Counted from the stretch's first letter, positions 20,326 through 43,523 are shown. The stretch: 53,906 bases of DNA from a virus (IMGVR_UViG_3300036850_000179:1-53906), one strand, 5' to 3'. Notes: generated from the sequence alone by a model not told the origin. A program made the numbers and translations.

Positions 20326-20628
20326 ATGACAGAAGAGACGATGGTGCTGTTGAAGCACTGCGAGAAGCACATGCCGGACGCTGCCCTCCGGGCCGACTTC
20401 CAGGACTGCGTCCTGCCGGAGGCGAAGGACGACCACGCTCGGGAGGTCCTCCAGGACTACTACAACCGCCGCCGGCGGCACCGGAGTTTCCAGCCGGGCA
20501 GCTTCACCCACAACAACCACATCGAGGCGCTCGCGACCGTGGCGGGTCGCTGCGAGGTCTGCGGGAAGCCCGCCCGCGGCCGGACATGCGGCGCCCGGTG
20601 CCGCAAGACCCTCTCTAGGGGGGTGTGA
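20326..20628 (+). CDS. Protein with C-terminal Zn finger
   Basis: CEVCG...TCGARC. Confidence 0.7.
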   Translation: MTEETMVLLKHCEKHMPDAALRADFQDCVLPEAKDDHAREVLQDYYNRRRRHRSFQPGSFTHNNHIEALATVAGRCEVCGKPARGRTCGARCRKTLSRGV

Positions 20629-20712
20629 CACCGACACCCCCCAGTTTTAGGTGTGACAAACCGCAGGTCAGAGGGGGTGCCCCCGGACGGTTTGGTCACT
20701 ACCCTACCGGAA

Positions 20713-20747
20713 ACACAAAAGCCCAGGTCAGAGACCTGGGCTTTGTG
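20713..20747. terminator. Bidirectional intrinsic terminator between the converging arms
   Basis: AAAGCCCAGGTC-AGA-GACCTGGGCTTT. Confidence 0.85.
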
Positions 20748-20769
20748 CGTCAGAACGGCTTGTAGAGGC

Positions 20770-21324
20770 TCAGTTGAGGGCGGCGTACGTCGGCCCCCAC
20801 ACCGACGACATGTTCTTCAGGACTTCGGTGCCGTCGGCGAGGAGGAACCGCACCTGGCCGGCTTCCGACTTCCCGCGGACGCGCATGAGGTCGTGGTCGT
20901 CGAGGTGCCCCGCCCACTCCCGCCCGGAGTCGGTTCGCCACCCCGTCGTCTCGGGGGTGCCGCATGGGACGCACCAGCCGACCGACGAGTGGACGTGCCA
21001 GTCGGGGATGTTCTCCAGCTTCCATTGCGTCTCGACGGTGCTCGTCCAGCGGCAGCCGTCGTAGATGGCGGCGTTGCGGTAGCAGCGGTGCCGGACGACA
21101 CCCTCGACCGTCCAAAAGTCGGCACCCTGAACCGGCACGCCGACACAGACGTTGACGGTGTCCTCGTAGAGGTTCCCCGCCGCGGTGACGTGGAACGCCG
21201 TCTGCTGCTCGCCGGTGCACGACTCGGCGGGGATGAGGTCGGTCGAGTCGTGCGCGCCCGCCGGCACCATGCCGACCAGGACGAACGCCACGCTGAGCAG
21301 CATGGCGACGAGAACTCTTCTCAT
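20770..21324 (-). CDS. Secreted 184-aa Cys-patterned protein B
   Basis: AGGAG RBS; signal peptide ending AGA; 6 Cys. Confidence 0.8.
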   Translation of the reverse strand: MRRVLVAMLLSVAFVLVGMVPAGAHDSTDLIPAESCTGEQQTAFHVTAAGNLYEDTVNVCVGVPVQGADFWTVEGVVRHRCYRNAAIYDGCRWTSTVETQWKLENIPDWHVHSSVGWCVPCGTPETTGWRTDSGREWAGHLDDHDLMRVRGKSEAGQVRFLLADGTEVLKNMSSVWGPTYAALN

Positions 21325-21334
21325 GCGTCTCCTC

Positions 21335-21514
21335 TCAGGAGCCGGCGAAGCGCCGCCGGCGCCGGCCTTCCTCACCGGGCTGCTTCCGGATGTTGGCGAC
21401 CTTCTTGCGGGTCGGAGCCATCGGGGCGGTCCCGGCCTGCATGTCCTCCCGGACGCCGGCGCCCCGCTGGCCGCCTTCCGGACCCGACTTCGAGCCCTTC
21501 CTGGCCTCGGCCAT
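21335..21514 (-). CDS. 59-aa basic peptide with ARKGSKSGPEGG motif
   Basis: Hand translation; GGGAGG RBS. Confidence 0.7.
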   Translation of the reverse strand: MAEARKGSKSGPEGGQRGAGVREDMQAGTAPMAPTRKKVANIRKQPGEEGRRRRRFAGS

Positions 21515-21527
21515 CGTACCTCCCCTC

Positions 21528-21752
21528 TTACGCCCCGTCGAGGCGGATTGCCGAACCCGCCATGTGCTTCTTGGCTCTGCCTGCCCTGGACACCCGTGCG
21601 GTTGTCGCCGGGTTCGTCTCGGCCGGCACCTGCTTGACGGCCTGCCGTGCGCCGCCTTCCGGCCCGGACCGGGAGCCGCGCCTTGCCGCCGGCGCCGGCT
21701 CCGGGAACTCCATCAGGTGCTCGCCGTAGAGCTGCTGGCCGTAGTCCGCCAT
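21528..21752 (-). CDS. 74-aa peptide with ARRGSRSGPEGG motif
   Basis: TGATG coupling; motif shared with the downstream gene. Confidence 0.7.
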   Translation of the reverse strand: MADYGQQLYGEHLMEFPEPAPAARRGSRSGPEGGARQAVKQVPAETNPATTARVSRAGRAKKHMAGSAIRLDGA

Positions 21753-21880
21753 CACCACACCACCCGCTCGTCGGGGTCGCTGATGCGCCGGACGGTGGCG
21801 CCATCGGTCGCCCTGATGAAGAGGATGTCCTCACCGGCGAAGCGGATGGTGTAGTCGTCGGGGATGTTGACGTGGTACAT
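21752..21880 (-). CDS. 42-aa microprotein
   Basis: AGGAGG RBS; MYHVNIPDDYTIRFAGEDILFIRATDGATVRRISDPDERVVW. Confidence 0.65.
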   Translation of the reverse strand: MYHVNIPDDYTIRFAGEDILFIRATDGATVRRISDPDERVVW

Positions 21881-21889
21881 GCGGTCCTC

Positions 21890-22039
21890 CTAGTAGGTGA
21901 GGCTCCCGCCCCCACCACCGCGGGTGTACCGACGGCGGATGCGGCGGGGAGGTTTCGTTCTGCGAACGGGCCGGCGCCGGCCGCCGGAGGTCAAGCTGAA
22001 CCGTTGCGGCCGGGGCAGCCCCTTCCGGCGGCGGGCCAT
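21890..22039 (-). CDS. 49-aa protamine-like Arg-rich protein
   Basis: MARRRK...; 18 K/R, no D/E; TGATG coupling. Confidence 0.65.
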   Translation of the reverse strand: MARRRKGLPRPQRFSLTSGGRRRPVRRTKPPRRIRRRYTRGGGGGSLTY

Positions 22040-22239
22040 CAGTAGCCCCGGCGTCTCGACCGGGTCGACAGCGGCCGCATCGGGCGGAAGCGGCCGACCC
22101 GCCGGGGGGTTCCCGGCGTCAGGTTCCTGCCGACCCGCCGTCCGGGCATGCGGGTCTGCCGCTTCGCCATCGGCCGGATGGGGGTGAAGCGGATGCTCCT
22201 TCGCATGCCCCATGCGCGCCGGCGTCGTGTCATCGCCAT
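22039..22239 (-). CDS. 66-aa protamine-like Arg-rich protein
   Basis: About one third Arg, no D/E; internal RRVGR and RPM repeats. Confidence 0.6.
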   Translation of the reverse strand: MAMTRRRRAWGMRRSIRFTPIRPMAKRQTRMPGRRVGRNLTPGTPRRVGRFRPMRPLSTRSRRRGY

Positions 22240-22670
22240 CGTTTCTCAGCCTCTCGTGTGGCTGCCCCGTCTACTGGTGTCCTCGCGGGCTCGCCCTTCC
22301 GTGCGGCGGCCTGCCGTTCTGCCTCCTCCTCGAACAGCCGGTCGAGCCCGACACCGAACGTCTGGTCGAACTGGTCGAGGTCGACCCGCCACGGCTCCTG
22401 CGCGACCGCCTGCGCGGCCTGCGCGCGGGTCATCTGACCGGCGTTGTACGCCGCGGCCTCCGCCGGGTGCCTCGCCGCCCACGCCTCACCGATGTCCTTC
22501 TCGGTGATGAAGTCGGCGGTCCACTTCTCATGTCCGGTCGCGGCGTCCGCCCACCGCGTAAGGGCGGCGGCGACGGTACCCGCGGCGGACCTGAAAGCCA
22601 CGGCCAACACGACCGCGGCGGAGACGCTCCCCGCGGCCAGGACCGCGCTGGCGGCCAAGACTGGGTCCAT
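22230..22670 (-). CDS. N-terminal TM protein
   Basis: GAGGG RBS; hydrophobic N-terminus, helical body. Confidence 0.7.
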   Translation of the reverse strand: MDPVLAASAVLAAGSVSAAVVLAVAFRSAAGTVAAALTRWADAATGHEKWTADFITEKDIGEAWAARHPAEAAAYNAGQMTRAQAAQAVAQEPWRVDLDQFDQTFGVGLDRLFEEEAERQAAARKGEPARTPVDGAATREAEKRWR

Positions 22671-23205
22671 GCGTCACCCTCACATTCGTCGAGATGTACT
22701 TCGCTGACGTGGCCTGCATCCGTCGGAAGCGTGCCATCGTGTCGGGGATGCCGTACGGGTTCGGCAGTGCCGTCCCGGGTGTGTTGTCGCCGCGGACGCC
22801 CCACTCGGCGAGGAGCTTCCCGGGGCCTTTCACTTCCAGGTCGAACTCCGTCGCGATGTGCATTTTCCAGCCGGCCTGCCGGAGGATGGCCTGTCCGAGC
22901 GCGACCTGCGAGATGACCGCGGGGATGGCCCCGAAGAACGTCCCGAGCACGACGATGACGGTCTTCTGGTTCGGGAGGTAGAACTCCGGCGCCCACGCCG
23001 GCAGCAGCGTCTTCGCGAACACCGGAGGGTTCGACCACTTCGACACGGGCAGGCGGTAGTAGAACCGGACGCCCCACCCGACGAGGGTCAGCCACATCTT
23101 CGCGTCGGCGCTGGAGATGTCCGGCATGGGGTTCTGCCAGCCGGGGACCGGGACATGGAACCCGCCACGGGTCCTGCGGGGGTACCGGTCCCGGTCCATG
23201 CTCAC
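22528..23205 (-). CDS. Degenerate Vsr/DUF559-fold protein with Arg-rich tail
   Basis: PEFYLP..KTVIVVLGTFFG...LRQAGWKMHIATEFDL parallels the Vsr pattern PDF..IEVDG.FWH...GW.V..VWE. Confidence 0.5.
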   Translation of the reverse strand: MSMDRDRYPRRTRGGFHVPVPGWQNPMPDISSADAKMWLTLVGWGVRFYYRLPVSKWSNPPVFAKTLLPAWAPEFYLPNQKTVIVVLGTFFGAIPAVISQVALGQAILRQAGWKMHIATEFDLEVKGPGKLLAEWGVRGDNTPGTALPNPYGIPDTMARFRRMQATSAKYISTNVRVTHGPSLGRQRGPGRGERLRRGRVGRGFQVRRGYRRRRPYAVGGRRDRT

Positions 23206-23209
23206 CGCC

Positions 23210-23278
23210 CTAGAAGATGTTCGTGACGAGCAGGTCGATGAACAGCAGCACGTCGATGATGATGAGGTTCACGACCAT
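23210..23278 (-). CDS. 22-aa hydrophobic micropeptide
   Basis: MVVNLIIIDVLLFIDLLVTNIF; exactly fills the intergenic gap. Confidence 0.5.
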   Translation of the reverse strand: MVVNLIIIDVLLFIDLLVTNIF

Positions 23279-23286
23279 CCAGCTTC

Positions 23287-23523
23287 TCAACGTCTCCTCC
23301 TCCTGCCCCGCAGAACGTTCTTCGCGAACAGCGCCCGCCGCTTCGCGAGCTTCCCGTACCGGCCGGCCCTGGCCGCCCGCATCTTCGACGCGGGTATCTT
23401 CCTGCCGGCGGGGACGCCGAGCTGCCGGTGCAGCGCGCCCTTCTTGAACCGGATAGTCTTCTGCCCCTTCCGTCGCGGCCGGACGTAGCCGTAGCGTGTG
23501 CTACGCCGGCGTCTCCGCGCCAT
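23287..23523 (-). CDS. 78-aa highly basic protein (KGALHRQLGVP..KIP motif)
   Basis: GGGAG RBS; no D/E; poly-Arg at both ends. Confidence 0.8.
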   Translation of the reverse strand: MARRRRRSTRYGYVRPRRKGQKTIRFKKGALHRQLGVPAGRKIPASKMRAARAGRYGKLAKRRALFAKNVLRGRRRRR

Positions 23524-23546
23524 GAAGGTCTCCCATCTTGCCCCGT

Positions 23547-24101
23547 TCAGACCGGACAGCCGGTGTTGGCCTCCGCGATGTAGCTGTCATGGTTGTGGTC
23601 GCTCCCGACCTGGCCACTGGAGGACTGCGCCTGGAGGTTGTTGGTGATGGTGCGGTAGTGGTCGATGCCGGGCTCGCCGTCGTTGGGGCACACCCAGGGG
23701 GTGTAGTAGTCCTCGGAGGTGTCGTTGTAGGTGCCGGTGGTGTAGATGGCCGTCGCCTCGGAGACGTAGTAGCCGTAGAAGGCGTCGTAGTGGTAGAGGT
23801 TGATGGTCACGTCGCCGTAGATGATGTTGCACTCGTCGTTGCTGTCAGGCCCGTATGTGCCGAGACGGCACCGGACCTTCGTGTGGCCTCGGAACGCACC
23901 TTCGTTCGGGCCGGAGGTGGCCCTCTCGGTACAGGTGCGAGCCTCGAACACCTGCCCGTTGTTGAACGCCGACAGGGTGCTGAACGTGCTCGCGCCAGGC
24001 TTGCAGTCCATCTCGACGGCGTACGCGGGGGTGGGCGCGAACCCGACGAGGGCGAACGCAACCGCCAAGAGGAGCGGAATGAGAGCAAGCTTCAGTTTCA
24101 C
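23547..24101 (-). CDS. Secreted 184-aa Cys-patterned protein A
   Basis: Signal peptide ending AYA; 6 Cys; coupled to the GH25 gene. Confidence 0.8.
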   Translation of the reverse strand: MKLKLALIPLLLAVAFALVGFAPTPAYAVEMDCKPGASTFSTLSAFNNGQVFEARTCTERATSGPNEGAFRGHTKVRCRLGTYGPDSNDECNIIYGDVTINLYHYDAFYGYYVSEATAIYTTGTYNDTSEDYYTPWVCPNDGEPGIDHYRTITNNLQAQSSSGQVGSDHNHDSYIAEANTGCPV

Positions 24102-24721
24102 AGCACGAACTCCCTGGTCAGGTCCTCAGCTTCGCCGAGGAACGTGTCATCATCGCACGGCCGGTCGATGCCCGCCACCACCCGTGCGTTGTCCCGCTGC
24201 CAGAACCGCAGCGCCCGCCGCCGGTCGTCCGGGAGCATGCCTGGCGTGTCGGACCAGCGCGCAACCCACAACGGCCATCCTGGCGGCCACGGCCGTCCGC
24301 CGTACACGTTCGTCCAGTAGTTCAAGTTGACGTACACGATGGGGTAGCGACCGAGCGCCGACCGCATCGCCTCCATGTACCCCTCCAGGACCATCCACGA
24401 CGGGTCGCTGAAGGACCCGTCCCGGAAGTGGCGGCGTTCCACGTCGACGGCGTGCATGATGCCGCGCGGGTCGCTGACGGTCCGGAGGTACTGGTCGGCC
24501 TGCTCCAGCCCGGTCCATTCCGCGCGGAGGAAGTGGTAGCCGCCGAAGACGACCCCGGCAAGCATCGCCCGGCGGCGGTGGTCCCCGAACGTCGGGTCCT
24601 GGTAGTCGCCACCCTCCGACGCCTTATGGAAGTCGAAGGTCACACCGCCCTGCTTCAGCTCCGTGTAGGAGCGGACGACGACCCAGTGGCTCGTGTCGAC
24701 GCCACGGCAGGTACTAGACAT
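24098..24721 (-). CDS. GH25 muramidase (catalytic domain only)
   Basis: GVDTSHW, KASEG, GGYHF, VDVE, LWVARW, FWQ, CDDD. Confidence 0.92.
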   Translation of the reverse strand: MSSTCRGVDTSHWVVVRSYTELKQGGVTFDFHKASEGGDYQDPTFGDHRRRAMLAGVVFGGYHFLRAEWTGLEQADQYLRTVSDPRGIMHAVDVERRHFRDGSFSDPSWMVLEGYMEAMRSALGRYPIVYVNLNYWTNVYGGRPWPPGWPLWVARWSDTPGMLPDDRRRALRFWQRDNARVVAGIDRPCDDDTFLGEAEDLTREFVL

Positions 24722-25028
24722 CGCCGACGACGAGCGGCCCGTACCGGTAGGTGACGGGGTGGGACGCGATGGTCACGACGATGCGGTACCAGCCGAACCC
24801 GACCGCGAGGGCGGTGACGGTGTCTTCGAGCTGGACGGTGAAGATGCCCGCCGCCTCGTCGGTGACGACCCCGGCGATGGTGACGCCGCTGGCGTCCGAC
24901 GCGGTCTTGCTCGACTTCGCGATGAACGCGATGCTAGCGCCGGCGAGGCTTTTGCCGGTCACGAACGTCAGCAGCGGTTCGTCGCTTTCGGGTATCGGGA
25001 GGGGGACCTCCTGCGGGAGCGTCGCCAT
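24714..25028 (-). CDS. Tail-fibre attachment protein (BppU-N-like)
   Basis: Beta-rich; SLAGASIAF...GIFTVQL..T...WYRI pattern; follows the fibre gene. Confidence 0.6.
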   Translation of the reverse strand: MATLPQEVPLPIPESDEPLLTFVTGKSLAGASIAFIAKSSKTASDASGVTIAGVVTDEAAGIFTVQLEDTVTALAVGFGWYRIVVTIASHPVTYRYGPLVVGDV

Positions 25029-34158: not shown

Positions 34159-35298
34159 TCAGGTGTCGATGTCGGTGATGACGACGACCGCGTGGGCCTT
34201 CTCGTTCTTCACCTTCAGACCGAACTCGCCGACCATCTGCTCCTTCTCGGTGTCGCCGGTCTTCGCGAGCGGCTCCGAGAACCAGTCGTCGAACACCTCC
34301 AGCCACACGTACTCGTCCTGGATGGCGAGCGCGCGGTTCCGCGGGAAGTGCCGGTTGACCTCCAGGTTCAGCTCGCCGAAGTCCGACTCGTACACCGAAC
34401 GGACCTGGCCGGCGCCGGGGTCGTCCCGGTCGACGCGGACCTTGTCGGTGTTGAGGGAGGAGAACTTCCGCTTGAACAGCGGCGACACCATCAGCCGGCT
34501 CGGGGAGCCGCCGAGGTTGTACGCCGACTGGAGCGCGTCCGCGAGGGCGACCTCGCCGACGGCGAAGTTGGTGCCGGCGGTCGCGGCGGTCGCGACGTTG
34601 GTGGTCACCTGCGCGAGAAACCCGGCGAAGGTGCGCTGCTTCGTCGACGCGCCGCCGACGAGGTTCCGGACGGAGTGGACGAGCGCCCGCTCCAGCCGAA
34701 TCGCGAGTTCCTTCACCTTCCGCGCCTTCGCGCGGGCCAGCGGGTCGGTGATGCCCCACTGCCTCTGCTTCCGGGCCGACCGGGAGGCGTCCACCAGCTC
34801 TTGGAAGATGGCGGTGTAGTTGAACTTCCCGGACGGGTCGCCGTCCCTCGACGCCTGCGGGTCGGCCCCCTCGTAGGGGACCTGGCCGATGATTTCGAGG
34901 ACGACGCCGTTGGAGAGGGTGTCGGGGGTCGTCGACGCCCACATCGTCGCGTTGGTGGTGACCTGGGTCGCCGACGGCACCGCCGTGACCTCCCAGATAC
35001 CGGTCGGGTTCTCGACCAGCCCGGCCGCCGGCACGACCTTCAGCAGGTCGCGGACGCGGATGTTGGACGAGTCGACGACGGGGATGATGTCGGTCGCCTC
35101 GACGCCGGTCGCGGTGACCGTCTGCGTGTCGAGGTCATCCTCCAGCCACTCGTACTTCGTGTTGTCGACGCCTTCCCGCTGGAGGCTGGTCTGGAGCGGC
35201 ACGTCGAACTTGTTCAGCAGCAAGATGACATCGTCCATCGTCTGACGGACGGTGGCGGCTGCCTGGTTGCCGGTGGTGCGTGGTCCCTGGATTGCCAT
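34159..35298 (-). CDS. Major capsid protein (DUF5309/SU10-like)
   Basis: YEWLEDDL, NYTAIFQ, ERAL..., YESDFGEL, LAKTGD, GEFGLKVKNEKAH. Confidence 0.9.
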   Translation of the reverse strand: MAIQGPRTTGNQAAATVRQTMDDVILLLNKFDVPLQTSLQREGVDNTKYEWLEDDLDTQTVTATGVEATDIIPVVDSSNIRVRDLLKVVPAAGLVENPTGIWEVTAVPSATQVTTNATMWASTTPDTLSNGVVLEIIGQVPYEGADPQASRDGDPSGKFNYTAIFQELVDASRSARKQRQWGITDPLARAKARKVKELAIRLERALVHSVRNLVGGASTKQRTFAGFLAQVTTNVATAATAGTNFAVGEVALADALQSAYNLGGSPSRLMVSPLFKRKFSSLNTDKVRVDRDDPGAGQVRSVYESDFGELNLEVNRHFPRNRALAIQDEYVWLEVFDDWFSEPLAKTGDTEKEQMVGEFGLKVKNEKAHAVVVITDIDT

Positions 35299-35317: not shown

Positions 35318-36103
35318 TCAGCCGGACTGGTCCGCCTTTCCGCTGCGGTCCCATGAGGAGTACACGGTGCCGCCCGGGACGAGCGTCACGTCCGGGTGTT
35401 GGGCCTTGAAGGCGAGGTAGTCCTGCATCTTCTTCTCCGGGGACTGCCTGGAGTTGAAGATGGCGCGCAGCTCGGCCGCCGGGTCTTCCCCACCCGTTGG
35501 GGTGGGAGACGGCGCGGAGGGCGCCCCACCAGCAACCCGAGGTTCCGGAGTCGCGGCAGGAGCCGCCGGCGCACTTCCGGGCACCGTTGCTGGTGCCGGG
35601 GCGGCCGGCGCACCACCAAGTCGGGTGTTCAGCTTCTCCGCGTCCGCGAGGATGGCCTCGGGCGTGTCGCCTTCGAGCCGGTCCCGGAACGGAGCGACCG
35701 CAGGAAACTTCGCCACCGCCGCGTCAACGGCGCTGGTGTAGCGGTCGAGCACCCGCTCGGTGAACAGCATCTCCACCATCGTCTCCAGGTCGGGCCTGGC
35801 GGCGGGTGGAGCCTGCGGGGTCGGCGCCGGTGCGGGACCTGGCTGGGTCGTCGCTGGCGCCGGCGTTGCCGCCGGCGGCGCTTGCTGGGTCTTCTGGCCG
35901 GTCTGCGGGTCGATACCCGCCGCCCGGAGGAAACCGAGGGCGCGCTGGTGGCTCGCCATGAGGCCGTCGTGTCTGGCCTTCTCCACGAAGCCATCGGGAG
36001 TCGTGCCAGGCTGACCGGCTGGCGGTGCGTCTGCCGCGGGGTTCGCCGTCCCAGGCTGAACCTGGGAAGGGTCCGCGGGAGGGACCGTCGGGTCGGTACT
36101 CAA
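35318..36103 (-). CDS. Capsid scaffolding protein
   Basis: AAGGAG RBS, TTG 36103; P/A/T-rich; LEGDTPEAILADAEKL; precedes the capsid. Confidence 0.75.
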   Translation of the reverse strand: MSTDPTVPPADPSQVQPGTANPAADAPPAGQPGTTPDGFVEKARHDGLMASHQRALGFLRAAGIDPQTGQKTQQAPPAATPAPATTQPGPAPAPTPQAPPAARPDLETMVEMLFTERVLDRYTSAVDAAVAKFPAVAPFRDRLEGDTPEAILADAEKLNTRLGGAPAAPAPATVPGSAPAAPAATPEPRVAGGAPSAPSPTPTGGEDPAAELRAIFNSRQSPEKKMQDYLAFKAQHPDVTLVPGGTVYSSWDRSGKADQSG

Positions 36104-36131
36104 CGTGCACTCCTTTACGTCGTCTGCCCCT

Positions 36132-36157
36132 TCACTATAGCCCGGCAACTGAGGACA
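36132..36157 (-). promoter_or_regulatory. Late promoter (scaffold/capsid operon)
   Basis: TGTCCTCAGTTGCCGGGCTATAGTGA; 22/26 identical to 48455..48480. Confidence 0.75.
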
Positions 36158-36158
36158 A

Positions 36159-39100
36159 CTAGTCCCGAAGTGCAGGTCTGCTCGTCACGCTCGCCGTCTC
36201 CGCGACCAGCGGTCGCATGCCCCACCGGTCGACGAGGACCTTGATGTACGCAGTCTGGTCGGCGAGGTACTGCTTTGCGAGGTCGGGGTAGTCCCCGAGG
36301 GTCTTCGCGACGAGACGGAGGAACTGCTCGTAGCGGCGGTGCCGCTCGTTCGCGAAGTACTCTTGCAGCTCCGGGTGGGACGCCGCGAACGCCTGCTTCG
36401 TCGACGGGTCCTTGATGGTGAAGTACCGCTGCGCCAGGTCGAAGAGCTGCCGCTCCCGCCCGGTCCGCAGCGCGCGCCAGTACGCGACCAGCTCCGGGTG
36501 CTTCTGGAGGAACTCATCCCGCGCGTACGTCGGCAGCTCGGAGAACTGCTCCATCAACGTCGACATCGGGTCCTGCCGTTCCGTCCACAAACCATACCGG
36601 AACATGATGTCCCGGACGACTTCCTGGTACGGCTCCGGCATGTTCGCCATCGGGCCGCGCTGGAGCCACCGGCCTATCTCCGGATGCAGCTCCAGGTACG
36701 ACGCCTTCTTTTTTCCCGACGGCATCTTCAGCCACAGCTCGTACGCCCGCGGCGCCTGCTCGCCCGGCTTCCGCTTCGTGTACTGCGCGAGCTGTGTCCG
36801 CGCAAAGCCTATCTCGATGGCGTCGTTGTAGGTCGCGGCGCCACCCTCGACGGTGTCGTCCCACCGGCCGTACTTCGTCATGATGAACCGGACGATTTCG
36901 GCGACGCCGGGCGGCATGTTGAACATCGGGCCGGCGCGGAACCACGCCTGCAACCGCGGGTGGGTGCGGATGTACTCCGCACGGAGGACAGGGTTGTCGC
37001 CGATTTTCTTCAGCTCGTCCAGCTCCGCCTGCGGCGCGGCCATTCCTTCCCGGCGGGAGTACTGCTTGAACATCTCCAGCGCGAACGCCAGCTCCCCGAA
37101 CCCGTCGCCAAGACGGTGGCCCCATACCTTCCATTCGTACCGCTTCCACCGGGACCAGCGGCCCCGACCGCGGGCGCCTGTCCCGCCGTCGCCGTCGGCC
37201 TGCATGCGCTTCCACTTCTCGATGGTGTCTTTGTCGACCATCCACGAGTCGCGGAGCAGGTCCTTCTGGAAGTTCGTCAGCCAGTCCCACTCCAGCCGGC
37301 CGCGACCGGACGCCTGATTCAGGCGGTCGCGTAGGTCCCGGATGGTCTCCTCCTGGACGTGCGGGGGCATCCACGCGAACCGACGCTCCTCGAAGCCTTC
37401 CTCCGTGTCGAAGCCCATCCGGCGGAAGTCGAGGGGGCTGCCGGCGCGGCCCATCTCCTCCCAGTTGCGATATGCCCGCATGAGGCGTATCTCGTCGTGG
37501 ACATCGTGGAGGATGGGGACGGTGTTGTAGAGCGAGTCGTTCAGGGCTTTCTTCTGCGCGTACAGCGCGGTCCGCTGCGAGGTAAGCTGCTTGATTTGGG
37601 CGCCGAGGCCATCCACCCAGACGTGGTTCGCTTTCGCCCACTCCAACTTCTCAAACAGCTTCGACAGCTTCGCGTTGACGGCGTCGAGCTGGCCATTCAA
37701 ATGGCCCAGCCGGGAGCCGACGTTGTCTTTCCGCTCCTCCCAGTACGTCTTCGCGGCCAGCTCGCCGTCGCGGTACGCCGGGTTCTTGCTGCCCAGCTCC
37801 TCGTGGTACTTGTCGTAGGTCTCCCGGCGGATGCCGTAGTACTTCCAGAACTCGTCGAGGTCGTCGGTCAGCCGCATCTGGTTCTCGACCCATTTGATAG
37901 CCTCGGCGGGGGTCAGCTTCTCCCGGGCGAATGTCTCCGCGTCCATGCCCTTCGTCTCGCGCCACAGCTCGTCTATCTGGTCGAAGGTGCGCGCCTCCGC
38001 CCACAGGTTCTTGTGCCGCAACCCGGCGCGCCAGTCAGCCGTGTAACCGTCGAACTTCGCCTGGGAGACGTTGTTGCCGACCCGCCACGCCTCCAGCTCA
38101 ACACGCCGGTCGCCGGCGGGCAGCGACATGATGGCGTCGAACTCGATGTCGCGGTCGTACAGCTCCTTCATCTTCGCCCACGCCGGCTCGTCGGACCACT
38201 TCCGCTCCCACTCCCGGATGGCGTCGACACGCTCGTACGGGTCGAGCAGGTCACCGATGGCGCGCCGCTCCGTGAACATCTCCCCGAGCTTTGCCGCGTC
38301 GTCGAGGACTTTCCGGTAGGCGGCCGGGTCCATAACCGAACGGGAGCCGACGAACGCAGCCCACTCCTCCTCGCTGGTGAGGTCACGCCAGTCCTCGACG
38401 GACAAGTTCACCAGCAGCGCCTTCGCGCGGTCGGGGTTGTCGGCCTTCAGCCGGTTCCACCAGTCTTTCCCGTACCGCTTCTGGTAGTCACCGACATCCT
38501 TCGCGAAGTCGTACCGGTTGACGTACGGGACGAGTTCCGGATGGTTGGTGAGGAGCATTCCCCACTGCACCTCACCGTCGCGGGTGTACCGGTCTATCTG
38601 CCGCTGGAACTCCAGTTGCCCGGCGTAGGTCTGCTGACTGGCGGCGGGGATGAACAGACCGAAGAAGAACTTCAGGGCGAAGGCGCCGCGGAGGGCCTGC
38701 TCAACCTCCTCCGCGGTCGGTGTGCGACCGAGGCGGAAGTACAGCTCCCGGACCATCTTGTCGGCGAGGACGTTGTTCTCCCGCGTCGACCAGCCACCTC
38801 CCACGAGCGCGCCGAGGAGATACCTGGCTTCGGGCCGGCCGATGACGGCGGTGAGGAGCTGCTCCGGTTCCAGTTCATGCGGCCGGACGCCGAGCGGCGG
38901 GCCGGCAGGGAACAACCACCGGCGCAGCATGCTCTTATGCGGGTACAGTTCCGGATGGGTCGACAGCGCGACCGCCATCCCCGAGCTGTACCACGGGCCG
39001 CCGGGGGTCGGGATGAACGCGCCGGCGACGTACTGGAGGAACAGGTTGTCGCCGATTCTGGCAGCCTCCAACGGCAGCGTCATGAAGATGTCCCGTAGTT

Positions 39101-42100
39101 TGAACGACAGCTCCAGGTCTTCCAGCGCGCGGCCGTAGCCGACTTCCTTCGCGGCGGCGTCGAACGGCACCCAGTCCGGCGCGATGTCCGCGTACCAGCG
39201 GGCGACACCCTCTACCGCCTCCGGTATCTTCAGGCGGACGCGCCACTCCCCGAAGTCGTCCTGCACCAGCGGGCTGTTCTCCGCGTGGGTGCCCTGCGAG
39301 AACAGACGGGCGTAGCGGATGTACGTCGCCGCGGCGGCGGCGGGACGCTCCCGCAGAAGACGACCGGCGACCCGGAGCTGCTCCTCCCGTGCTGACTGGA
39401 ATGGGAAGATGAGTTCCATCTTCTGCGCGAACACGGAGCGCTGACCGGCGTCGTACATGATTTGGTTGGTCCGCCGGACAGCGTGGAGGTTCGCGAGCCG
39501 CGACGCCTCCGGGTACGGCACACCAGAAGCGGTGAGGGCGCGCAGCTCCCGCTGGTATTCGATGAACGCGAACGGCTGCCGGGTCAGGCCGGTCGTGCCC
39601 GACTCGAACGTCATCCGCTCCAGCGACTTCCACGGGTGCTTCACGACATCCAGCGGGCCGCCTATCTGCGGACGGCCGTACACCGCGATAGGGAGGTCGC
39701 CCGGGGCGAGCGCGCGCACCTCCGCTAGCGAGATGAGGCCGCCGAGGCGGCGCTGCGCGACTTCGTCGCTGCGGACGATGGACCGTGCCCATTCGGTGAA
39801 CGCTTGGACGACTTCCTCCGCGTCTTTCGCGCCGTTCATGCTGCGGTACATCGCGAGGTACGGGCGCCCTTCGGCGCTGCGGAGCCACTCGACCGCGTTC
39901 CGGTACGCGATGTCCCACTCGTCGGTGCCTTCCCGCCACAGCACCCCGAGCATGTAATGCGCGACCGACTCCGAGTCGGGGTTGACCTGTCGGTTCAACA
40001 GGTGCCACAAGTTCTCCTCGAACCCGGCTTCGCCCTGCTCGATGACTTGGGTGTCGCCGCCTCGCGCCCAATGCTTGTACGCGAAGTAGTCGGGGACTTC
40101 CTCCAGTCCGATGCCGGACCAGGAGCCGAAACCTTCCCGTTCGACCGCCATCATGTGGTCGCTCGCGCGCCGCGCGGTCGCTCCGATAGCGAACGCCGGC
40201 CCCATTCCCTGCGCGACCTGCGCGCGGGTCTTCTCCTCTAAGGTGATGCGGAGGACGTACCGCGGGGCGGCGAGGGTCAACACCGACCACTTCCACAGCC
40301 GGTGGACGGGCCATAGCACCGATGAGGCGGCGGCCATCGCCCAGGTCGTTGCGTACCCGCTGGTGACGGCTGCGCCGATGGTGTTGCGGCCTTCGTCGAG
40401 GGCGCGCCGGAGCTGGATGGCGTGCGACCACGCCTTCAGCATCTCCGGGTCGACGAGGCCGACGAAGTTCGCCGACTGGGTGAGCGCCTGCGGCGACGTG
40501 ACCGCCTCCAGGACATCCTCGCCGTCCTTGTCGACCTTCACGATGGCGCCGTATACCTTCTCGTCGCCCGGTTTCGCGGGGCCGGTGCCCTTGCTGGTGT
40601 ACTCCATCCCGGAGCGGCCGTACCGGAAGTCCCGTTTCGCGGCCGGACCGACACGGAACGGGCCTATCTCCACCATCCCCCACTTTGGGGCGTTCTGGCG
40701 GAGCCATTCCCGGAACCCGTCGCGGTGGAGGGCCATCAGCTCGTTCACTTCGGCGACGGTGTGGCCGCGGCGGAAGGCGTACTGCTCCACGAGCCCGTCG
40801 ATGACGGCCTGGATGTCCTCAACACGTTTGCCGGGGTCGATGCCGGCCTGGTACACCCGCCACGCCGCCTCGCCGGCTTCCGCCTCCGACGCGCCAAGGT
40901 AGCGGGCATAGTCGGTCATCAGCTTCGCGGTCGTCTCGACGTTCTCGATGGACGCTGTCAGCTTCGTCGGGTACATATCGAACGGGGCCAGGAGCACCTT
41001 CGCGAGGCGCTGCCGCCCCCGCCCCGCCAGCCCGCGCATCTGGTCGGGTCCTATCTGGAATCGCTGCATCTCCCGGTACGCTGCAACATCCCGCAAGAAC
41101 GCCTGCTCGGCGAGGTCGTACGCCTCCTGCGGCGTCCGCAGCGCGACCGCGACATCCTTCTCCAGTTGCGCGAACCGCTGGTGCAACTCCTGGGACAGCT
41201 TCACCCGCCCGAACCGCTCCATCACCGCAGTCACGTCGTTGACGGCCTGCGCCCACTTCGCGTACATCGGGGTACCGAACGTCTTGAACGCCGACGCCGT
41301 CCGGAGGTCCCGCAATGCTTTCAGCCAGTCCGGGTCCTGACCGAACAACGCCTGCTGTGCCGGCGTCATCCTCGCGGCGATGTCATCGATTTCCTGCTGG
41401 TACGCCGCCCGGACACCTTCGAGCCGGCGGATGAGCGCGTCGCGCATCGCCGAGGGCGGCAGCAGGCCGATGTACGTCGCGGCGTTGACCTGCCGGACGG
41501 CCATCTCATGGACGGCCTTCCCGGGCTTCAGTTTCGGCGCGCCCGCCTTCGTGACCCCGACCTGGACGCGGGATATCTGGTCGAGGGCGGCCTTCAGGTC
41601 CTTATAGTCGGGGTCCTCAGCAAACCGGCGGAGATATGGCGCGATGTTGCGGAGGGTCGGGTCGTCGGCAAGACGCCGCCCGAGGTATGCCCGCCGTTCC
41701 GTCCCGCGTAGCGTCCGACGCATATGGTGGGACAGCGCGTAGGTGTGCGCGGAGCGAGTCCACAGCGGCATCTGCTGGAGGACTTCCTGGATACCGTCGA
41801 CGGTCCCGAGATGAGACATCAGCGCGACCTGACCGACGCCCTGAGCGACACGGGTCGGGAGGGAGATGAGTGGCTTCCACTCCCGCCCGAGCGCGAACGT
41901 CAGCAACGCCGCGAGCTTCTGCTCGTCGAGCGGTCCGTCGCCGAGCTGCTGCGCGAGCGTACGGGCTTCATTCTGTGCCTTCTCCGCGGCGGCCTGGTTC
42001 GGGCCGCGCCGCGGTCGGGCGTTGATGTAGCGAGCGAGGTACTCCCGCGCCTTCCCGCCGGTCGGGTCGGTCAGCGCGGAAACTAGCTTGCTTTCCTGCG

Positions 42101-43523
42101 CGGCAGCATTATCGAGGCCGCGAACGGTCTTCAGCAGCAGTGACACGTCCCGGTTCGCGCCGGCACGGGCCGCCTGTGTCGCAGCCTTCCCGATGATGGC
42201 GCGCCCCGCGGCGGTGGAGGCGAACCGTTCCGCCTTCGCGGCGTCGCTGATGATGAGCAGCGGCCGGACGCCCTTGCCGAGGACGAGGGTGGGGTCGAAG
42301 AGGAGCTGGTAGGAGAAGTCTCCGACCCGCGAGATGACGGAACCTTCGTAGGACGACTGGCCGTAGCCGGCTTCCGGGCGGCCGGCGGACAGCAGGAATG
42401 CCCGCCGTAGCCGCTCTGTACGGCGTGTAGCGTAGTCCTCTAGTGCACGGCCGGTCAATCCCTGTTGACGGCCGAGTTCACGGGCCGCCTTCATGGTGTG
42501 CTCGCGGCCCATCAGGTCACGTGCGAACCGCTGGCCGAACGACTCCATCTGACGGGTCAGGGCGAGCTGGTCCCGTTCCGCCCGGTCGTCGGTCGCCTCA
42601 GCGATGGTGCGGGCGAACGTCCCTTCCGGGAGCAGCCCCGCGGTCCGGGTCGCCGATGCGGCGCCAGCGAATACCGCCTCGCCGAACGCTCCGAGAGTCT
42701 CGTCGAACGCTTCGCGCGCCTCCCGGAACGCGACGCCGGGGACGAACAGCCGCTCGAAGATGCTCGGTCCGCCGCCGGTTTCCCGCCGGAGGTCCTGCGC
42801 GGTCTGAAGGTCGAGGCTGCGCTGGAAAGCGTACCCGAACCGGCTGGGGAACTCCAGCAGCGTCCGCGCGGGGGCGGTGTCCAACCCAGCCAGCCGCACG
42901 CCGGCCTCCAGGGCGGTTCCCGCCGCCGACTTCACCCGCCCGAGGAACGTGTGCGCCTCCGCCGCCTGGCGGGCCTGCGCTGCCGCCAGCGCCGCACTCT
43001 CCCGCGCCTGGCCGGTCTCCAGCTCCCCGAGGGTCTTCACGCGCTTCGCGGCAGCCTCCGCCTGCTCGCGGAAGATGCCCGACTCGCCGGTGAACCCGGC
43101 GATGAACCGGGCGATGGACGCCTCACGGGTGAGGGCGTCCTCGCCGCGCATCGCGCGCTGGATGCCCTGGAGCCCGCGCTGAAACGCCGCCTGGTCGCGG
43201 GCGACCTTCCGCTGGTACTCCGCGACCGCCGCGGCGGCACCCTTCGTCTGAAGTGTCACGCCCCTCTGGCGGGACAGATAGACGTAGGAGTGGTACGCGC
43301 GGGAGGTCTGCGGACCCCACTTCCCGTCGACGGCGACGTTGAAGCCGGCAGCGCGGAGGAGCCGCTGGAGGTCACGGACGTACGCCGGGTCGCGCGTGAG
43401 GCGGGCCTGCTGCTGCGGGATGGTCTCGAACTGGCCGGGGAGCCGGTTGTAGCGGGTCGGGAACCGACGCTTGATTTGCGTCGGTGTACCCGCCCGGCCA
43501 CCTACCCCTGGGACAGGAGGCAA
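36159..43523 (-). CDS. 2454-aa internal virion / DNA-ejection-type protein with N-terminal peptidoglycan-binding domain
   Basis: VRDLQRLL...GF.V.VDGKWGPQT (PG_binding_1-like); FDPT and TNQIMYD...LIFPF motifs; duplicated C-terminal domain. Confidence 0.7.
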   Translation of the reverse strand: MPPVPGVGGRAGTPTQIKRRFPTRYNRLPGQFETIPQQQARLTRDPAYVRDLQRLLRAAGFNVAVDGKWGPQTSRAYHSYVYLSRQRGVTLQTKGAAAAVAEYQRKVARDQAAFQRGLQGIQRAMRGEDALTREASIARFIAGFTGESGIFREQAEAAAKRVKTLGELETGQARESAALAAAQARQAAEAHTFLGRVKSAAGTALEAGVRLAGLDTAPARTLLEFPSRFGYAFQRSLDLQTAQDLRRETGGGPSIFERLFVPGVAFREAREAFDETLGAFGEAVFAGAASATRTAGLLPEGTFARTIAEATDDRAERDQLALTRQMESFGQRFARDLMGREHTMKAARELGRQQGLTGRALEDYATRRTERLRRAFLLSAGRPEAGYGQSSYEGSVISRVGDFSYQLLFDPTLVLGKGVRPLLIISDAAKAERFASTAAGRAIIGKAATQAARAGANRDVSLLLKTVRGLDNAAAQESKLVSALTDPTGGKAREYLARYINARPRRGPNQAAAEKAQNEARTLAQQLGDGPLDEQKLAALLTFALGREWKPLISLPTRVAQGVGQVALMSHLGTVDGIQEVLQQMPLWTRSAHTYALSHHMRRTLRGTERRAYLGRRLADDPTLRNIAPYLRRFAEDPDYKDLKAALDQISRVQVGVTKAGAPKLKPGKAVHEMAVRQVNAATYIGLLPPSAMRDALIRRLEGVRAAYQQEIDDIAARMTPAQQALFGQDPDWLKALRDLRTASAFKTFGTPMYAKWAQAVNDVTAVMERFGRVKLSQELHQRFAQLEKDVAVALRTPQEAYDLAEQAFLRDVAAYREMQRFQIGPDQMRGLAGRGRQRLAKVLLAPFDMYPTKLTASIENVETTAKLMTDYARYLGASEAEAGEAAWRVYQAGIDPGKRVEDIQAVIDGLVEQYAFRRGHTVAEVNELMALHRDGFREWLRQNAPKWGMVEIGPFRVGPAAKRDFRYGRSGMEYTSKGTGPAKPGDEKVYGAIVKVDKDGEDVLEAVTSPQALTQSANFVGLVDPEMLKAWSHAIQLRRALDEGRNTIGAAVTSGYATTWAMAAASSVLWPVHRLWKWSVLTLAAPRYVLRITLEEKTRAQVAQGMGPAFAIGATARRASDHMMAVEREGFGSWSGIGLEEVPDYFAYKHWARGGDTQVIEQGEAGFEENLWHLLNRQVNPDSESVAHYMLGVLWREGTDEWDIAYRNAVEWLRSAEGRPYLAMYRSMNGAKDAEEVVQAFTEWARSIVRSDEVAQRRLGGLISLAEVRALAPGDLPIAVYGRPQIGGPLDVVKHPWKSLERMTFESGTTGLTRQPFAFIEYQRELRALTASGVPYPEASRLANLHAVRRTNQIMYDAGQRSVFAQKMELIFPFQSAREEQLRVAGRLLRERPAAAAATYIRYARLFSQGTHAENSPLVQDDFGEWRVRLKIPEAVEGVARWYADIAPDWVPFDAAAKEVGYGRALEDLELSFKLRDIFMTLPLEAARIGDNLFLQYVAGAFIPTPGGPWYSSGMAVALSTHPELYPHKSMLRRWLFPAGPPLGVRPHELEPEQLLTAVIGRPEARYLLGALVGGGWSTRENNVLADKMVRELYFRLGRTPTAEEVEQALRGAFALKFFFGLFIPAASQQTYAGQLEFQRQIDRYTRDGEVQWGMLLTNHPELVPYVNRYDFAKDVGDYQKRYGKDWWNRLKADNPDRAKALLVNLSVEDWRDLTSEEEWAAFVGSRSVMDPAAYRKVLDDAAKLGEMFTERRAIGDLLDPYERVDAIREWERKWSDEPAWAKMKELYDRDIEFDAIMSLPAGDRRVELEAWRVGNNVSQAKFDGYTADWRAGLRHKNLWAEARTFDQIDELWRETKGMDAETFAREKLTPAEAIKWVENQMRLTDDLDEFWKYYGIRRETYDKYHEELGSKNPAYRDGELAAKTYWEERKDNVGSRLGHLNGQLDAVNAKLSKLFEKLEWAKANHVWVDGLGAQIKQLTSQRTALYAQKKALNDSLYNTVPILHDVHDEIRLMRAYRNWEEMGRAGSPLDFRRMGFDTEEGFEERRFAWMPPHVQEETIRDLRDRLNQASGRGRLEWDWLTNFQKDLLRDSWMVDKDTIEKWKRMQADGDGGTGARGRGRWSRWKRYEWKVWGHRLGDGFGELAFALEMFKQYSRREGMAAPQAELDELKKIGDNPVLRAEYIRTHPRLQAWFRAGPMFNMPPGVAEIVRFIMTKYGRWDDTVEGGAATYNDAIEIGFARTQLAQYTKRKPGEQAPRAYELWLKMPSGKKKASYLELHPEIGRWLQRGPMANMPEPYQEVVRDIMFRYGLWTERQDPMSTLMEQFSELPTYARDEFLQKHPELVAYWRALRTGRERQLFDLAQRYFTIKDPSTKQAFAASHPELQEYFANERHRRYEQFLRLVAKTLGDYPDLAKQYLADQTAYIKVLVDRWGMRPLVAETASVTSRPALRD

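Follow-up and report, generated by a model that had tools for sequence, protein, structure and literature searches.

Positions 21335-23523 of a virus genome recorded in IMG/VR (IMGVR_UViG_3300036850_000179; 53,906 bases with direct terminal repeats and ~68% guanine-cytosine (GC) content, the whole of which is referred to here as the window) were analyzed for the nature of several small arginine-rich open reading frames (ORFs). The region is best explained as a mixed run of small, tightly packed genes at the end of a late operon and not as one functional cassette, an explanation that, taken as a whole, we hold with a confidence moderately above even. The original prediction for this DNA had proposed a multi-gene, protamine-like set of microproteins that condenses the phage genome; its observation was partly confirmed and its interpretation is partly supported. 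As it had stated, the ORFs of 78, 66 and 49 amino acids (aa) contain no acidic residues and a third or more Lys+Arg (41%, 35% and 37%, respectively), and two of them begin with MARRR (MARRRRR in the 78-aa protein and MARRRK in the 49-aa ORF). The finding is mostly an ordinary one: one gene of a known type, one orphan-like microprotein family, one doubtful ORF and one overlap artefact.

The 78-aa protein and its family

The 78-aa ORF (23287-23523, minus strand; net charge +32) is certainly a gene. Judged by its sequence, its product is a member of a family of small basic phage proteins (~60-80 aa) that can be recognized by the pattern KKGALHRQLG-P...KIP. The protein (P0004) has the conserved family core G-L-H-x-x-L-x-x-P...I...R-A-x-L-A within the expected length of about 60-80 aa, with invariant or nearly invariant columns at G29, L31, H32, L35, P38, I43, R63 and A67, and it matched the family search profile, which was built from 13 members, with an E-value of 1.9e-20. 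A search with this profile, in which 8,000 candidates were scored, brought up no fewer than 4,406 clusters at E ≤ 1e-3, and relatives of the 78-aa protein were located in 16 viral and 80 metagenome loci on contigs of 34-62% GC. Among the best 120 clusters listed, none carried a Pfam domain and none was named beyond "hypothetical protein"; the family itself has no Pfam entry, and its match to phrog_15706 is weak. The closest relative, P0023, likewise has Arg-rich ends and showed 81% BLASTP identity across 74% of the query.

The family core contains ~27% Lys+Arg at every GC content (89 loci), and across the same loci the Arg share of Lys+Arg climbs with GC (rho = 0.38, p = 3e-4). Part of the Arg-richness of the 78-aa protein is thus the Lys-richness of its family in a form shaped by high GC, to which poly-Arg ends have been added. 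Its C-terminal Arg run (23287-23304) is written in AGG and AGA codons, which make up 5% and 1% of the Arg codons of the genome, and spells AGGAGGAGGAGA just upstream of the next micro-ORF, where it forms the ribosome-binding site of that ORF. Because the Arg run encodes AGGAGGAGGAGA, this C-terminus is under a dual coding and regulatory constraint.

The genomic context of the family was examined in 14 loci (L006, L010 and L012 were omitted as duplicates or truncated copies). In 10 of the 14, the family gene lies near head or packaging genes annotated by PHROG or by the record itself, mostly within ~4.5 kb. It sits between the portal and major head protein genes in three loci (L008, L009 and L015), just after the major head protein gene in three more (L005, L011 and L014) and just before the terminase gene in another (L017). 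In Pelagibacter phage HTVC027P, it is found between the terminase and capsid genes (at a distance of 12.3 kb, by the phage's own annotation), and this family member, gp44, is classed as "Late" in Table S3 of an infection transcriptome (PMC12753301). In some contigs, the family module makes up the C-terminus or the interior of larger proteins (at least 109 to 239 aa; L003:5824-6183, L016:3159-3878, L004:5707-6204 and L022:2-331, the last in a frame that may run off the contig end), so the module also occurs as a domain.

Remote similarity to fusellovirus VP2

Comparison of the family with known protein domains pointed to VP2 of the fusellovirus SSV1 (Sulfolobus spindle-shaped virus 1). The Pfam family PF25632 (Fusello_VP2_Capsid) was matched at E ≤ 1 by 56 of 113 family members, compared with 9 of 113 for the runner-up family, and eight of 40 members scanned singly matched it at E ≤ 1e-3. 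Alignment of the family to SSV1 VP2 with hhalign gave a probability of 91% (E = 1.1e-6, 34 columns). The hidden Markov model (HMM) of the family aligned VP2 end to end with 14.5 bits and ranked it first of 20,002 sequences that included its own shuffles, and BLASTP of one member (P0035) against VP2 found 10 identities in 17 positions. Taken together, these sequence comparisons make homology of the 78-aa family to VP2 probable. SSV1 VP2 is reported to have been purified from virions, to bind DNA and to be deletable without visible effect (PMC3367457). Homologues in unrelated archaeal and bacterial viruses are mentioned in a minireview of SSV1 (PMC9608457); as bacterial-virus homologues of VP2 are thus already in print, the link is not new in principle.

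Several observations weigh against this assignment and against the role that follows from it. The best-scoring member reached 25.3 bits, below the 27-bit Pfam gathering cut-off of PF25632; all matches to PF25632 are confined to profile positions 1-26; and the 78-aa protein itself had no match to that profile. In the HMM ranking, VP2 exceeded the best of 20,000 shuffles by just 0.5 bit. An AlphaFold2 model of the 78-aa protein, computed with a 113-sequence alignment, consists of a hairpin and three helices (mean predicted local distance difference test (pLDDT) score 74), and Foldseek found no match to this model in the PDB at E ≤ 0.001 (best 1.6), while the best hit of a wide VIA-align search had a Z-score of 3.1. 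A PDB sequence search with the family profile returned nothing, and a search of BFVD returned uncharacterised family members only. With regard to gene position, no annotated head gene is nearby in four of the 14 loci (L004, L013, L016 and L018), and in the present phage the 78-aa gene follows the endolysin gene, outside the head module and 10.6 kb from the major head protein gene. Finally, DNA binding and virion presence are attributed to tailed-phage family members by analogy with a single protein, SSV1 VP2.

Weighing these points, a DNA-binding, virion-associated role appears plausible for the 78-aa protein by analogy. Of the DNA-related role that had been proposed for all of the basic proteins jointly, this is the part that stands as a reasonable inference, and it does so for the 78-aa protein only, since its family resembles VP2, VP2 binds DNA and was purified from virions, and the usual position of the family gene is in head modules. 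If this family indeed corresponds to VP2 in tailed phages, a gene that is very common in head modules is at present uncharacterised; the family would then mark a class of small DNA-binding virion proteins and bear on how packaged DNA is neutralised and which proteins enter the cell along with it.

The 66-aa and 49-aa ORFs

Sequence comparison indicates that the 66-aa ORF (22039-22239, minus strand; Arg/Pro-rich with 22 Arg, net charge +23) is probably a real gene of a small undescribed family. A word-index protein search with its product returned the query only, and an exhaustive phmmer search of 1.84 billion representatives returned four proteins at E ≤ 0.001: the query, a 62-aa protein (P0126, E = 7e-6) and two long tandem-repeat proteins, which were set aside as repeats. 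Four variants make up the P0126 cluster; they come from metagenome contigs (ENA and JGI) no longer than 3,059 bases. P0126 had no match in viral_contigs, genome_contigs or deposited phages, and a search for the 66-aa protein in the records behind L003, L007, L019 and L020 came back empty, a negative that carries no weight there. The 66-aa protein and P0126 are of similar length (62-66 aa), have the motifs GRR[VI]GRN[LM]TPGTPRRVGR and IR[FW]TPIRP[MV][AV]KR in common and are alike at both ends (MA...RR at the N-terminus and R-[GS]-Y at the C-terminus). None of 5,000 shuffles that preserved composition (mean 43, maximum 80) reached their Smith-Waterman score of 118, and the substitutions between them are conservative (V/I, L/M, F/W, M/V and A/V). 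Against this reading, it must be considered that the homologues are known as proteins only, so that protein-level selection on the 66-aa ORF is deduced from the conservative substitutions alone. The ESM Atlas model of the protein has a pLDDT of 0.25 and is predicted to be disordered, and the Atlas gave no match to it at 0.9 or above. The protein is recorded as a called gene from JGI/IMG, where it forms a singleton cluster. A single frameshifted gene spanning the 66- and 49-aa ORFs was considered and rejected, because P0126 ends in a C-terminus that matches that of the 66-aa ORF.

In a genome of this composition, the openness of a reading frame is by itself no evidence of a gene, since open frames are plentiful at ~70% GC (67 ORFs of at least 25 aa within 5 kb around the site). 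The frequency of frames of such length lends some credit to an alternative in which the 78-aa gene is the only real one and the 66- and 49-aa ORFs are open frames of a GC-rich spacer that are untranslated or have no function, or else a remnant undergoing decay. Codon statistics were trained on 28 long genes outside the region and compared with 159 wrong-frame ORFs inside those same genes (shadow ORFs). The total codon-usage score spoke for this alternative and against the reading of the 66-aa ORF as a gene: it was approximately -0.03 for both the 66- and 49-aa ORFs, a value reached by 26% of the shadow ORFs, and over the 66-aa interval two other frames equalled it. This score was dropped as a discriminator because the proven 78-aa gene is penalised as well (0.177, in the bottom 5.5% of true chunks). 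As Arg content depresses the total score, a synonymous-codon score that ignores amino-acid make-up was added. By this measure, the 66-aa (0.129) and 49-aa (0.138) ORFs fall at the 28th-32nd percentile of true 50-codon chunks and surpass every one of the 45 shadow ORFs that contain 20% Arg or more, for which the maximum was -0.074 and the highest GC content at third codon positions (GC3) was 0.79; the scores of the two ORFs are attained by 17-24% of 63 high-GC3 antisense shadows.

Further measures set the 78- and 66-aa ORFs apart. Codon periodicity was significant for both (p = 1e-4 and p = 7e-4, respectively), as opposed to the 49-aa ORF (p = 0.17, not significant), and their GC3 values are 0.88 and 0.89 (59/66 for the latter). 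Across the genome, 477 ORFs are 40 aa or longer, and 12 of them combine a Lys+Arg fraction of 0.30 or more with an Asp+Glu fraction of 0.03 or less; among these 12, the 66- and 78-aa ORFs rank as the top two in GC3, and the other ten have GC3 values of at most 0.80 and lie inside known genes. The third-position signal and the periodicity of the 66-aa ORF, together with its specific homologue family, two common motifs, similar termini and conservative substitutions, count against the alternative that the 78-aa gene alone is real, to which we assign little probability. The case of the 66-aa ORF illustrates that, in high-GC phages, conserved genes do occur among the Arg-rich mini-ORFs, and that third-position GC combined with exhaustive profile searching can tell such genes from shadow frames.

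For the 49-aa ORF (21890-22039, minus strand; 16 Arg, net charge +18), we put the chances of it being a translated gene at about equal either way. Neither the word-index search nor viral_contigs yielded a homologue, its exact sequence is not in the protein collection, its ribosome-binding site is weak (GGGG), and GC by codon position is 33/37/41 of 49. Its likeness to P0126 is one of composition only, as 3,758 of 5,000 shuffles scored as high. In its favor are its synonymous codon usage, its TGATG coupling to the 66-aa gene and the gap of ~150 nucleotides (nt) that would otherwise remain in an operon with spacings of 0-25 nt elsewhere. The proposal that these ORFs are not GC shadow frames was thus borne out for the 78-aa ORF and probably for the 66-aa ORF by GC3, periodicity and homologues, and left in doubt for the 49-aa ORF; conservation followed the same division, with a huge family behind the 78-aa protein, the P0126 family behind the 66-aa protein and no homologue of the 49-aa ORF.

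The extreme Arg content, small size and predicted disorder could also point to a role of the 66- and 49-aa products as arginine-rich-motif binders of RNA or ribosomes that modulate translation or transcription in the late phase. RNA binding is well established for arginine-rich motifs and for very small basic ribosomal proteins. However, neither ORF had a Pfam, NCBIfam or PHROG match, no Rfam element or RNA structure was found nearby, and the distal position in a late operon is not a regulatory one, which leaves this explanation very improbable.

Origin of the arginine-rich tail

The original prediction had also pointed to an Arg-rich tail on a Vsr-like protein. The tail is present: the last 46 residues of the 223-aa protein (22528-23199, minus strand), encoded at 22528-22668 on the minus strand, contain 17 Arg. 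It lies wholly inside the 143-nt overlap of this ORF with the downstream gene of a 146-aa acidic protein with a hydrophobic N-terminus (22230-22670, minus strand) and is out of frame with the start of that gene. Within the overlap, GC by codon position is 41/34/31 of 46 in the tail frame, with a synonymous score of -0.052, which is the shadow pattern, and 34/31/41 of 47 in the 146-aa frame, which is the coding pattern. The body of the 223-aa ORF (22671-23199) has a GC3 of 163/176. The start of the 146-aa gene is preceded by a GAGGGTGA site, and stop codons occur just upstream of the ATG. The tail therefore arises where the 223-aa ORF continues, in another frame, across the first, Ala/Val-rich segment of the 146-aa gene. 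It would be translated if the 223-aa ORF is read to its stop codon, and from these base patterns it looks like a by-product rather than a selected domain.

The designation "Vsr-like" found no HMM support. A six-frame search of the whole window gave no match to PF03852 or PF04480 (Vsr/DUF559) at E ≤ 10, and the 223-aa protein had no Pfam (E ≤ 0.1), NCBIfam or PHROG match and no relatives in metagenome_contigs or genome_contigs. Its Atlas record begins at residue 25 and may be the gene call of the same genome; seven of the ten nearest structural rows to this model (pLDDT 0.65) belong to DUF559 or Vsr clusters, with template modeling (TM) scores of 0.42-0.49. A single-sequence AlphaFold2 model had a pLDDT of 38.8, too low for use. 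A DUF559/Vsr-like nuclease fold is therefore possible on the Atlas model and is treated here as a lead only.

Relationship among the cassette genes

Eighteen proteins of the window were compared by tblastn with 98 fetched loci at E ≤ 1e-4. Matches were obtained only to the 78-aa protein (a homologue of which is carried by 89 of the 98 loci), to a 166-aa protein and to the fiber. A second cassette gene beside a 78-aa relative was found in none of the 98 loci, many of which are short contigs. Synteny in relatives, which the original prediction had named as a check, therefore speaks against a multi-gene protamine-like system. The cassette is also absent from L020, the closest partial relative of the phage, a locus found through the 166-aa tail-region protein (78% identity) that has in common just that gene and part of the fiber. 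The viral_contigs search gave no relatives of the 225/223-aa, 146-aa, 184-aa, 49-aa or 59-aa proteins, and the ORFs are linked by nothing beyond adjacency and charge.

Two readings would nevertheless assign the basic proteins a common task. In the first, which is that of the original prediction, the 78-, 66- and 49-aa proteins, the Arg tail and two further basic peptides form a protamine-like set that condenses or shields the genome in the capsid or during assembly. Three neighboring ORFs without acidic residues, with net charges of +32, +23 and +18, produced from one late transcript with translational coupling, are what such a set would look like; its 78-aa member resembles VP2, and the 78- and 66-aa ORFs carry coding signatures, unlike the other Arg-rich frames of the genome. 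Opposed to this are the lack of co-occurrence of any two cassette genes in the related loci, the absence of the cassette from the closest partial relative, the shadow-frame signature of the tail, and a 49-aa ORF that is corroborated neither by a homologue nor by an entry in the protein collection. The two additional peptides, of 74 and 59 aa, are just mildly basic (15% and 25% Lys+Arg, respectively) and contain acidic residues, contrary to what had been proposed for them. In tailed phages such as T4, the procapsid is built first and DNA is then pumped into it, which obliges internal proteins to get in ahead of the DNA; neither a targeting signal nor a protease site was recognized in the proteins of the cassette, although no test was aimed at such signals and none is defined for this phage group. 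We consider a protamine-like set unlikely.

In the second, the phage would load its head with several unrelated polycationic microproteins (the 78- and 66-aa and perhaps the 49-aa proteins) that serve as DNA counter-ions, a reading to which we likewise give a low probability. If true, this would be a protamine-like multi-gene set overlooked so far because its peptides vanish in tryptic proteomics and pass for GC shadow frames, and the VP2-like family, with thousands of clusters and its place in head modules, would be a widespread internal DNA-binding protein of tailed phages.

Under the preferred explanation of a mixed run of genes, each element is accounted for separately. The 78-aa protein, like VP2, would bind DNA non-specifically via its Lys/Arg-rich helices and termini and would travel in or with the virion, and one of its poly-Arg ends would double as the ribosome-binding site of the next ORF. 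The 66-aa protein, being disordered and polycationic according to prediction, would bind a polyanion, most likely nucleic acid. The 49-aa ORF may or may not be translated, and the Arg tail of the 223-aa ORF would be a by-product of frame overlap.

Operon layout and genome context

Positions 1-20628 of the genome are occupied by plus-strand genes, and a minus-strand operon runs from ~48458 down to 20770. PHROG matches identified the large terminase (45383-47017), portal (43535-45373), scaffold (35318-36148) and major head protein (34159-35298; phrog_1328, E = 1.6e-57), all on the minus strand. The portal and scaffold genes are separated by a minus-strand ORF of 2,454 aa without a PHROG match (36159-43523), whose product may be a giant protein with an internal or ejection role. 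These head and packaging genes and a GH25 endolysin gene (24098-24721, minus strand) are upstream of 21335-23523 on the same strand. The endolysin was the only family match when all cassette-region ORFs were searched against Pfam, PHROGs and NCBIfam; two OXA-type matches on cassette ORFs were dismissed as noise (13-15 bits compared with cut-offs of 580-600).

An intrinsic-terminator-like hairpin at 20718-20744 on the minus strand (12-pair stem followed by a T-rich tail) ends the late operon and is the only terminator-like site on that strand within 20500-24800; with this single minus-strand terminator at 20744-20718, the region 21335-23523 represents the distal end of one late transcript. A plus-strand terminator-like hairpin (20618-20642) faces it, forming a convergent pair where the plus- and minus-strand gene blocks meet. 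Rfam returned one match over 20500-24800, Acido-Lenti-1, which was below threshold (19 bits against a 37-bit cut-off) and fell on the minus-strand hairpin.

In the order of transcription, and all on the minus strand, the run begins with a secreted 184-aa protein (23547-24101), followed by the 78-aa gene in second place and a hydrophobic micro-ORF of 22-26 aa in third (23210-23290). The latter comprises 26 aa if it starts at a TTG overlapping the stop codon of the 78-aa gene, or 22 aa if it starts at an ATG at 23278. Its coding signature is stronger than any other in the region (GC of 11, 1 and 22 out of 22 at the first, second and third codon positions), its synonymous score of 0.313 is above that of every shadow ORF, and it may be a membrane micropeptide. 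The 223-, 146-, 66- and 49-aa ORFs occupy the fourth to seventh places. They are followed by a 42-aa acidic small protein in eighth place (21752-21880; AGGAGGA site, GC3 40/42, synonymous score 0.255), the mildly basic 74-aa protein in ninth (21528-21752; net +4, GC3 65/74), the basic 59-aa protein ending in RRRRR in tenth (21335-21514; net +9, GC3 54/59, synonymous score 0.227) and a second secreted 184-aa protein in eleventh (20770-21324). The 66-, 42-, 74- and 59-aa sequences, unlike the 49-aa one, are recorded as called genes from JGI/IMG.

The tiling of the operon by ribosome-binding sites and TGATG coupling, on which the original prediction had relied, was confirmed on the following points. 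TGATG overlaps couple the 66-aa gene to the 49-aa ORF and the 42-aa gene to the 74-aa gene, the stop codon of the 146-aa gene overlaps an ATGA in the start region of the 66-aa gene, and the 42-aa, 59-aa and last genes each have a strong site of the AGGAGG type in front of them. Those ahead of the 49- and 74-aa ORFs are weak. The 74- and 59-aa proteins have in common a 16-residue stretch with 12 identities (E = 5e-6), which suggests that these adjacent genes are paralogues from a local duplication. The two 184-aa proteins, which have similar signal peptides, flank the cassette on either side; they are paralogous in the N-terminal half (29% identity across 82 residues, E = 6e-6), and neither protein matches any family.

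The location of the Arg-rich ORFs 0.6-2.2 kb after the GH25 endolysin gene on the same transcript, interspersed with two secreted proteins, the hydrophobic 22-26-aa peptide and the N-terminally hydrophobic 146-aa protein, raises the question of whether these microproteins could be lysis accessories, i.e., polycationic peptides that act on the envelope with the endolysin. A phage-encoded cationic peptide for outer-membrane disruption, the phiKT disruptin, is on record (bioRxiv 10.1101/515445). Nonetheless, the 78-aa family is usually found in head modules and not in lysis cassettes, the 66-aa protein is predicted to be disordered and not amphipathic, none of the ORFs matched a lysis PHROG, and no signal peptide is present on any of the Arg-rich microproteins. 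A lysis function is therefore given only a slight probability.

The phage is a tailed, 54 kb, 68% GC phage from soil. Its host is inferred to be a soil actinobacterium from the GC content, matches to Streptomyces phages (five of six hits of the neighboring 166-aa protein are to Streptomyces phage records at 38-41%) and identical contigs in soil runs. Three soil metagenome runs, each from a different study, contained low-depth contigs of 151-470 bases that are identical to stretches of 20736-24664; this phage, or a strain nearly identical to it, therefore recurs across soil samples. All three are DNA runs in which the phage makes up a small share, and no RNA run was listed as containing it. Besides these contigs, the runs contained scattered unlike matches of 40-50 nt over the region and gave no variants for a selection test. 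A blastn search of 20700-24800 against deposited phages returned no match.

Comparison with known systems

The likeness that underlies the original prediction is to the core proteins P6.9 of baculoviruses and VII and mu of adenoviruses, which are small and Arg-rich, have few or no acidic residues and are made late. The 78-, 66- and 49-aa ORFs resemble them in size, Arg-richness, scarcity of acidic residues and lateness. No Pfam-A match at E ≤ 0.1 was obtained for any cassette ORF, these protein families included. The viruses concerned also assemble their capsids around or with condensed DNA, whereas tailed phages pump naked DNA through a portal.

The disruptin of phage phiKT (gp28) is, like the microproteins described here, small, cationic and phage-encoded with lysis genes (bioRxiv 10.1101/515445). 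When the 66-aa protein is set beside it, the former stands out by its predicted disorder.

The original prediction knew of no multi-gene set in tailed phages, which overlooks the internal proteins IPI, IPII and IPIII of T4. These are described as small, non-essential prohead-core proteins of ~360 copies each that stay with the DNA and are injected (PMC9958956), and they are the nearest tailed-phage precedent for a multi-gene internal protein set. The T4 proteins have a capsid-targeting sequence and are cleaved by the prohead protease, two features that were not identified in the proteins of the cassette, at which no such test was aimed; unlike a condensing agent, IPI acts against a restriction enzyme.

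For the 78-aa protein, the closest comparison is with SSV1 VP2. The two differ in that the 78-aa protein lacks the KWIQ part of the VP2 motif and has extra poly-Arg termini, and in that its gene comes from a tailed phage with a terminase-packaged head and not from a spindle-shaped virus. In other respects they are alike: VP2 and the family are small (74 aa compared with 60-80 aa) and very basic, and the whole-length HMM alignment places the N-terminal motif KW[IV]Q.A..K.G..HR.L and a basic C-terminal helix in both.

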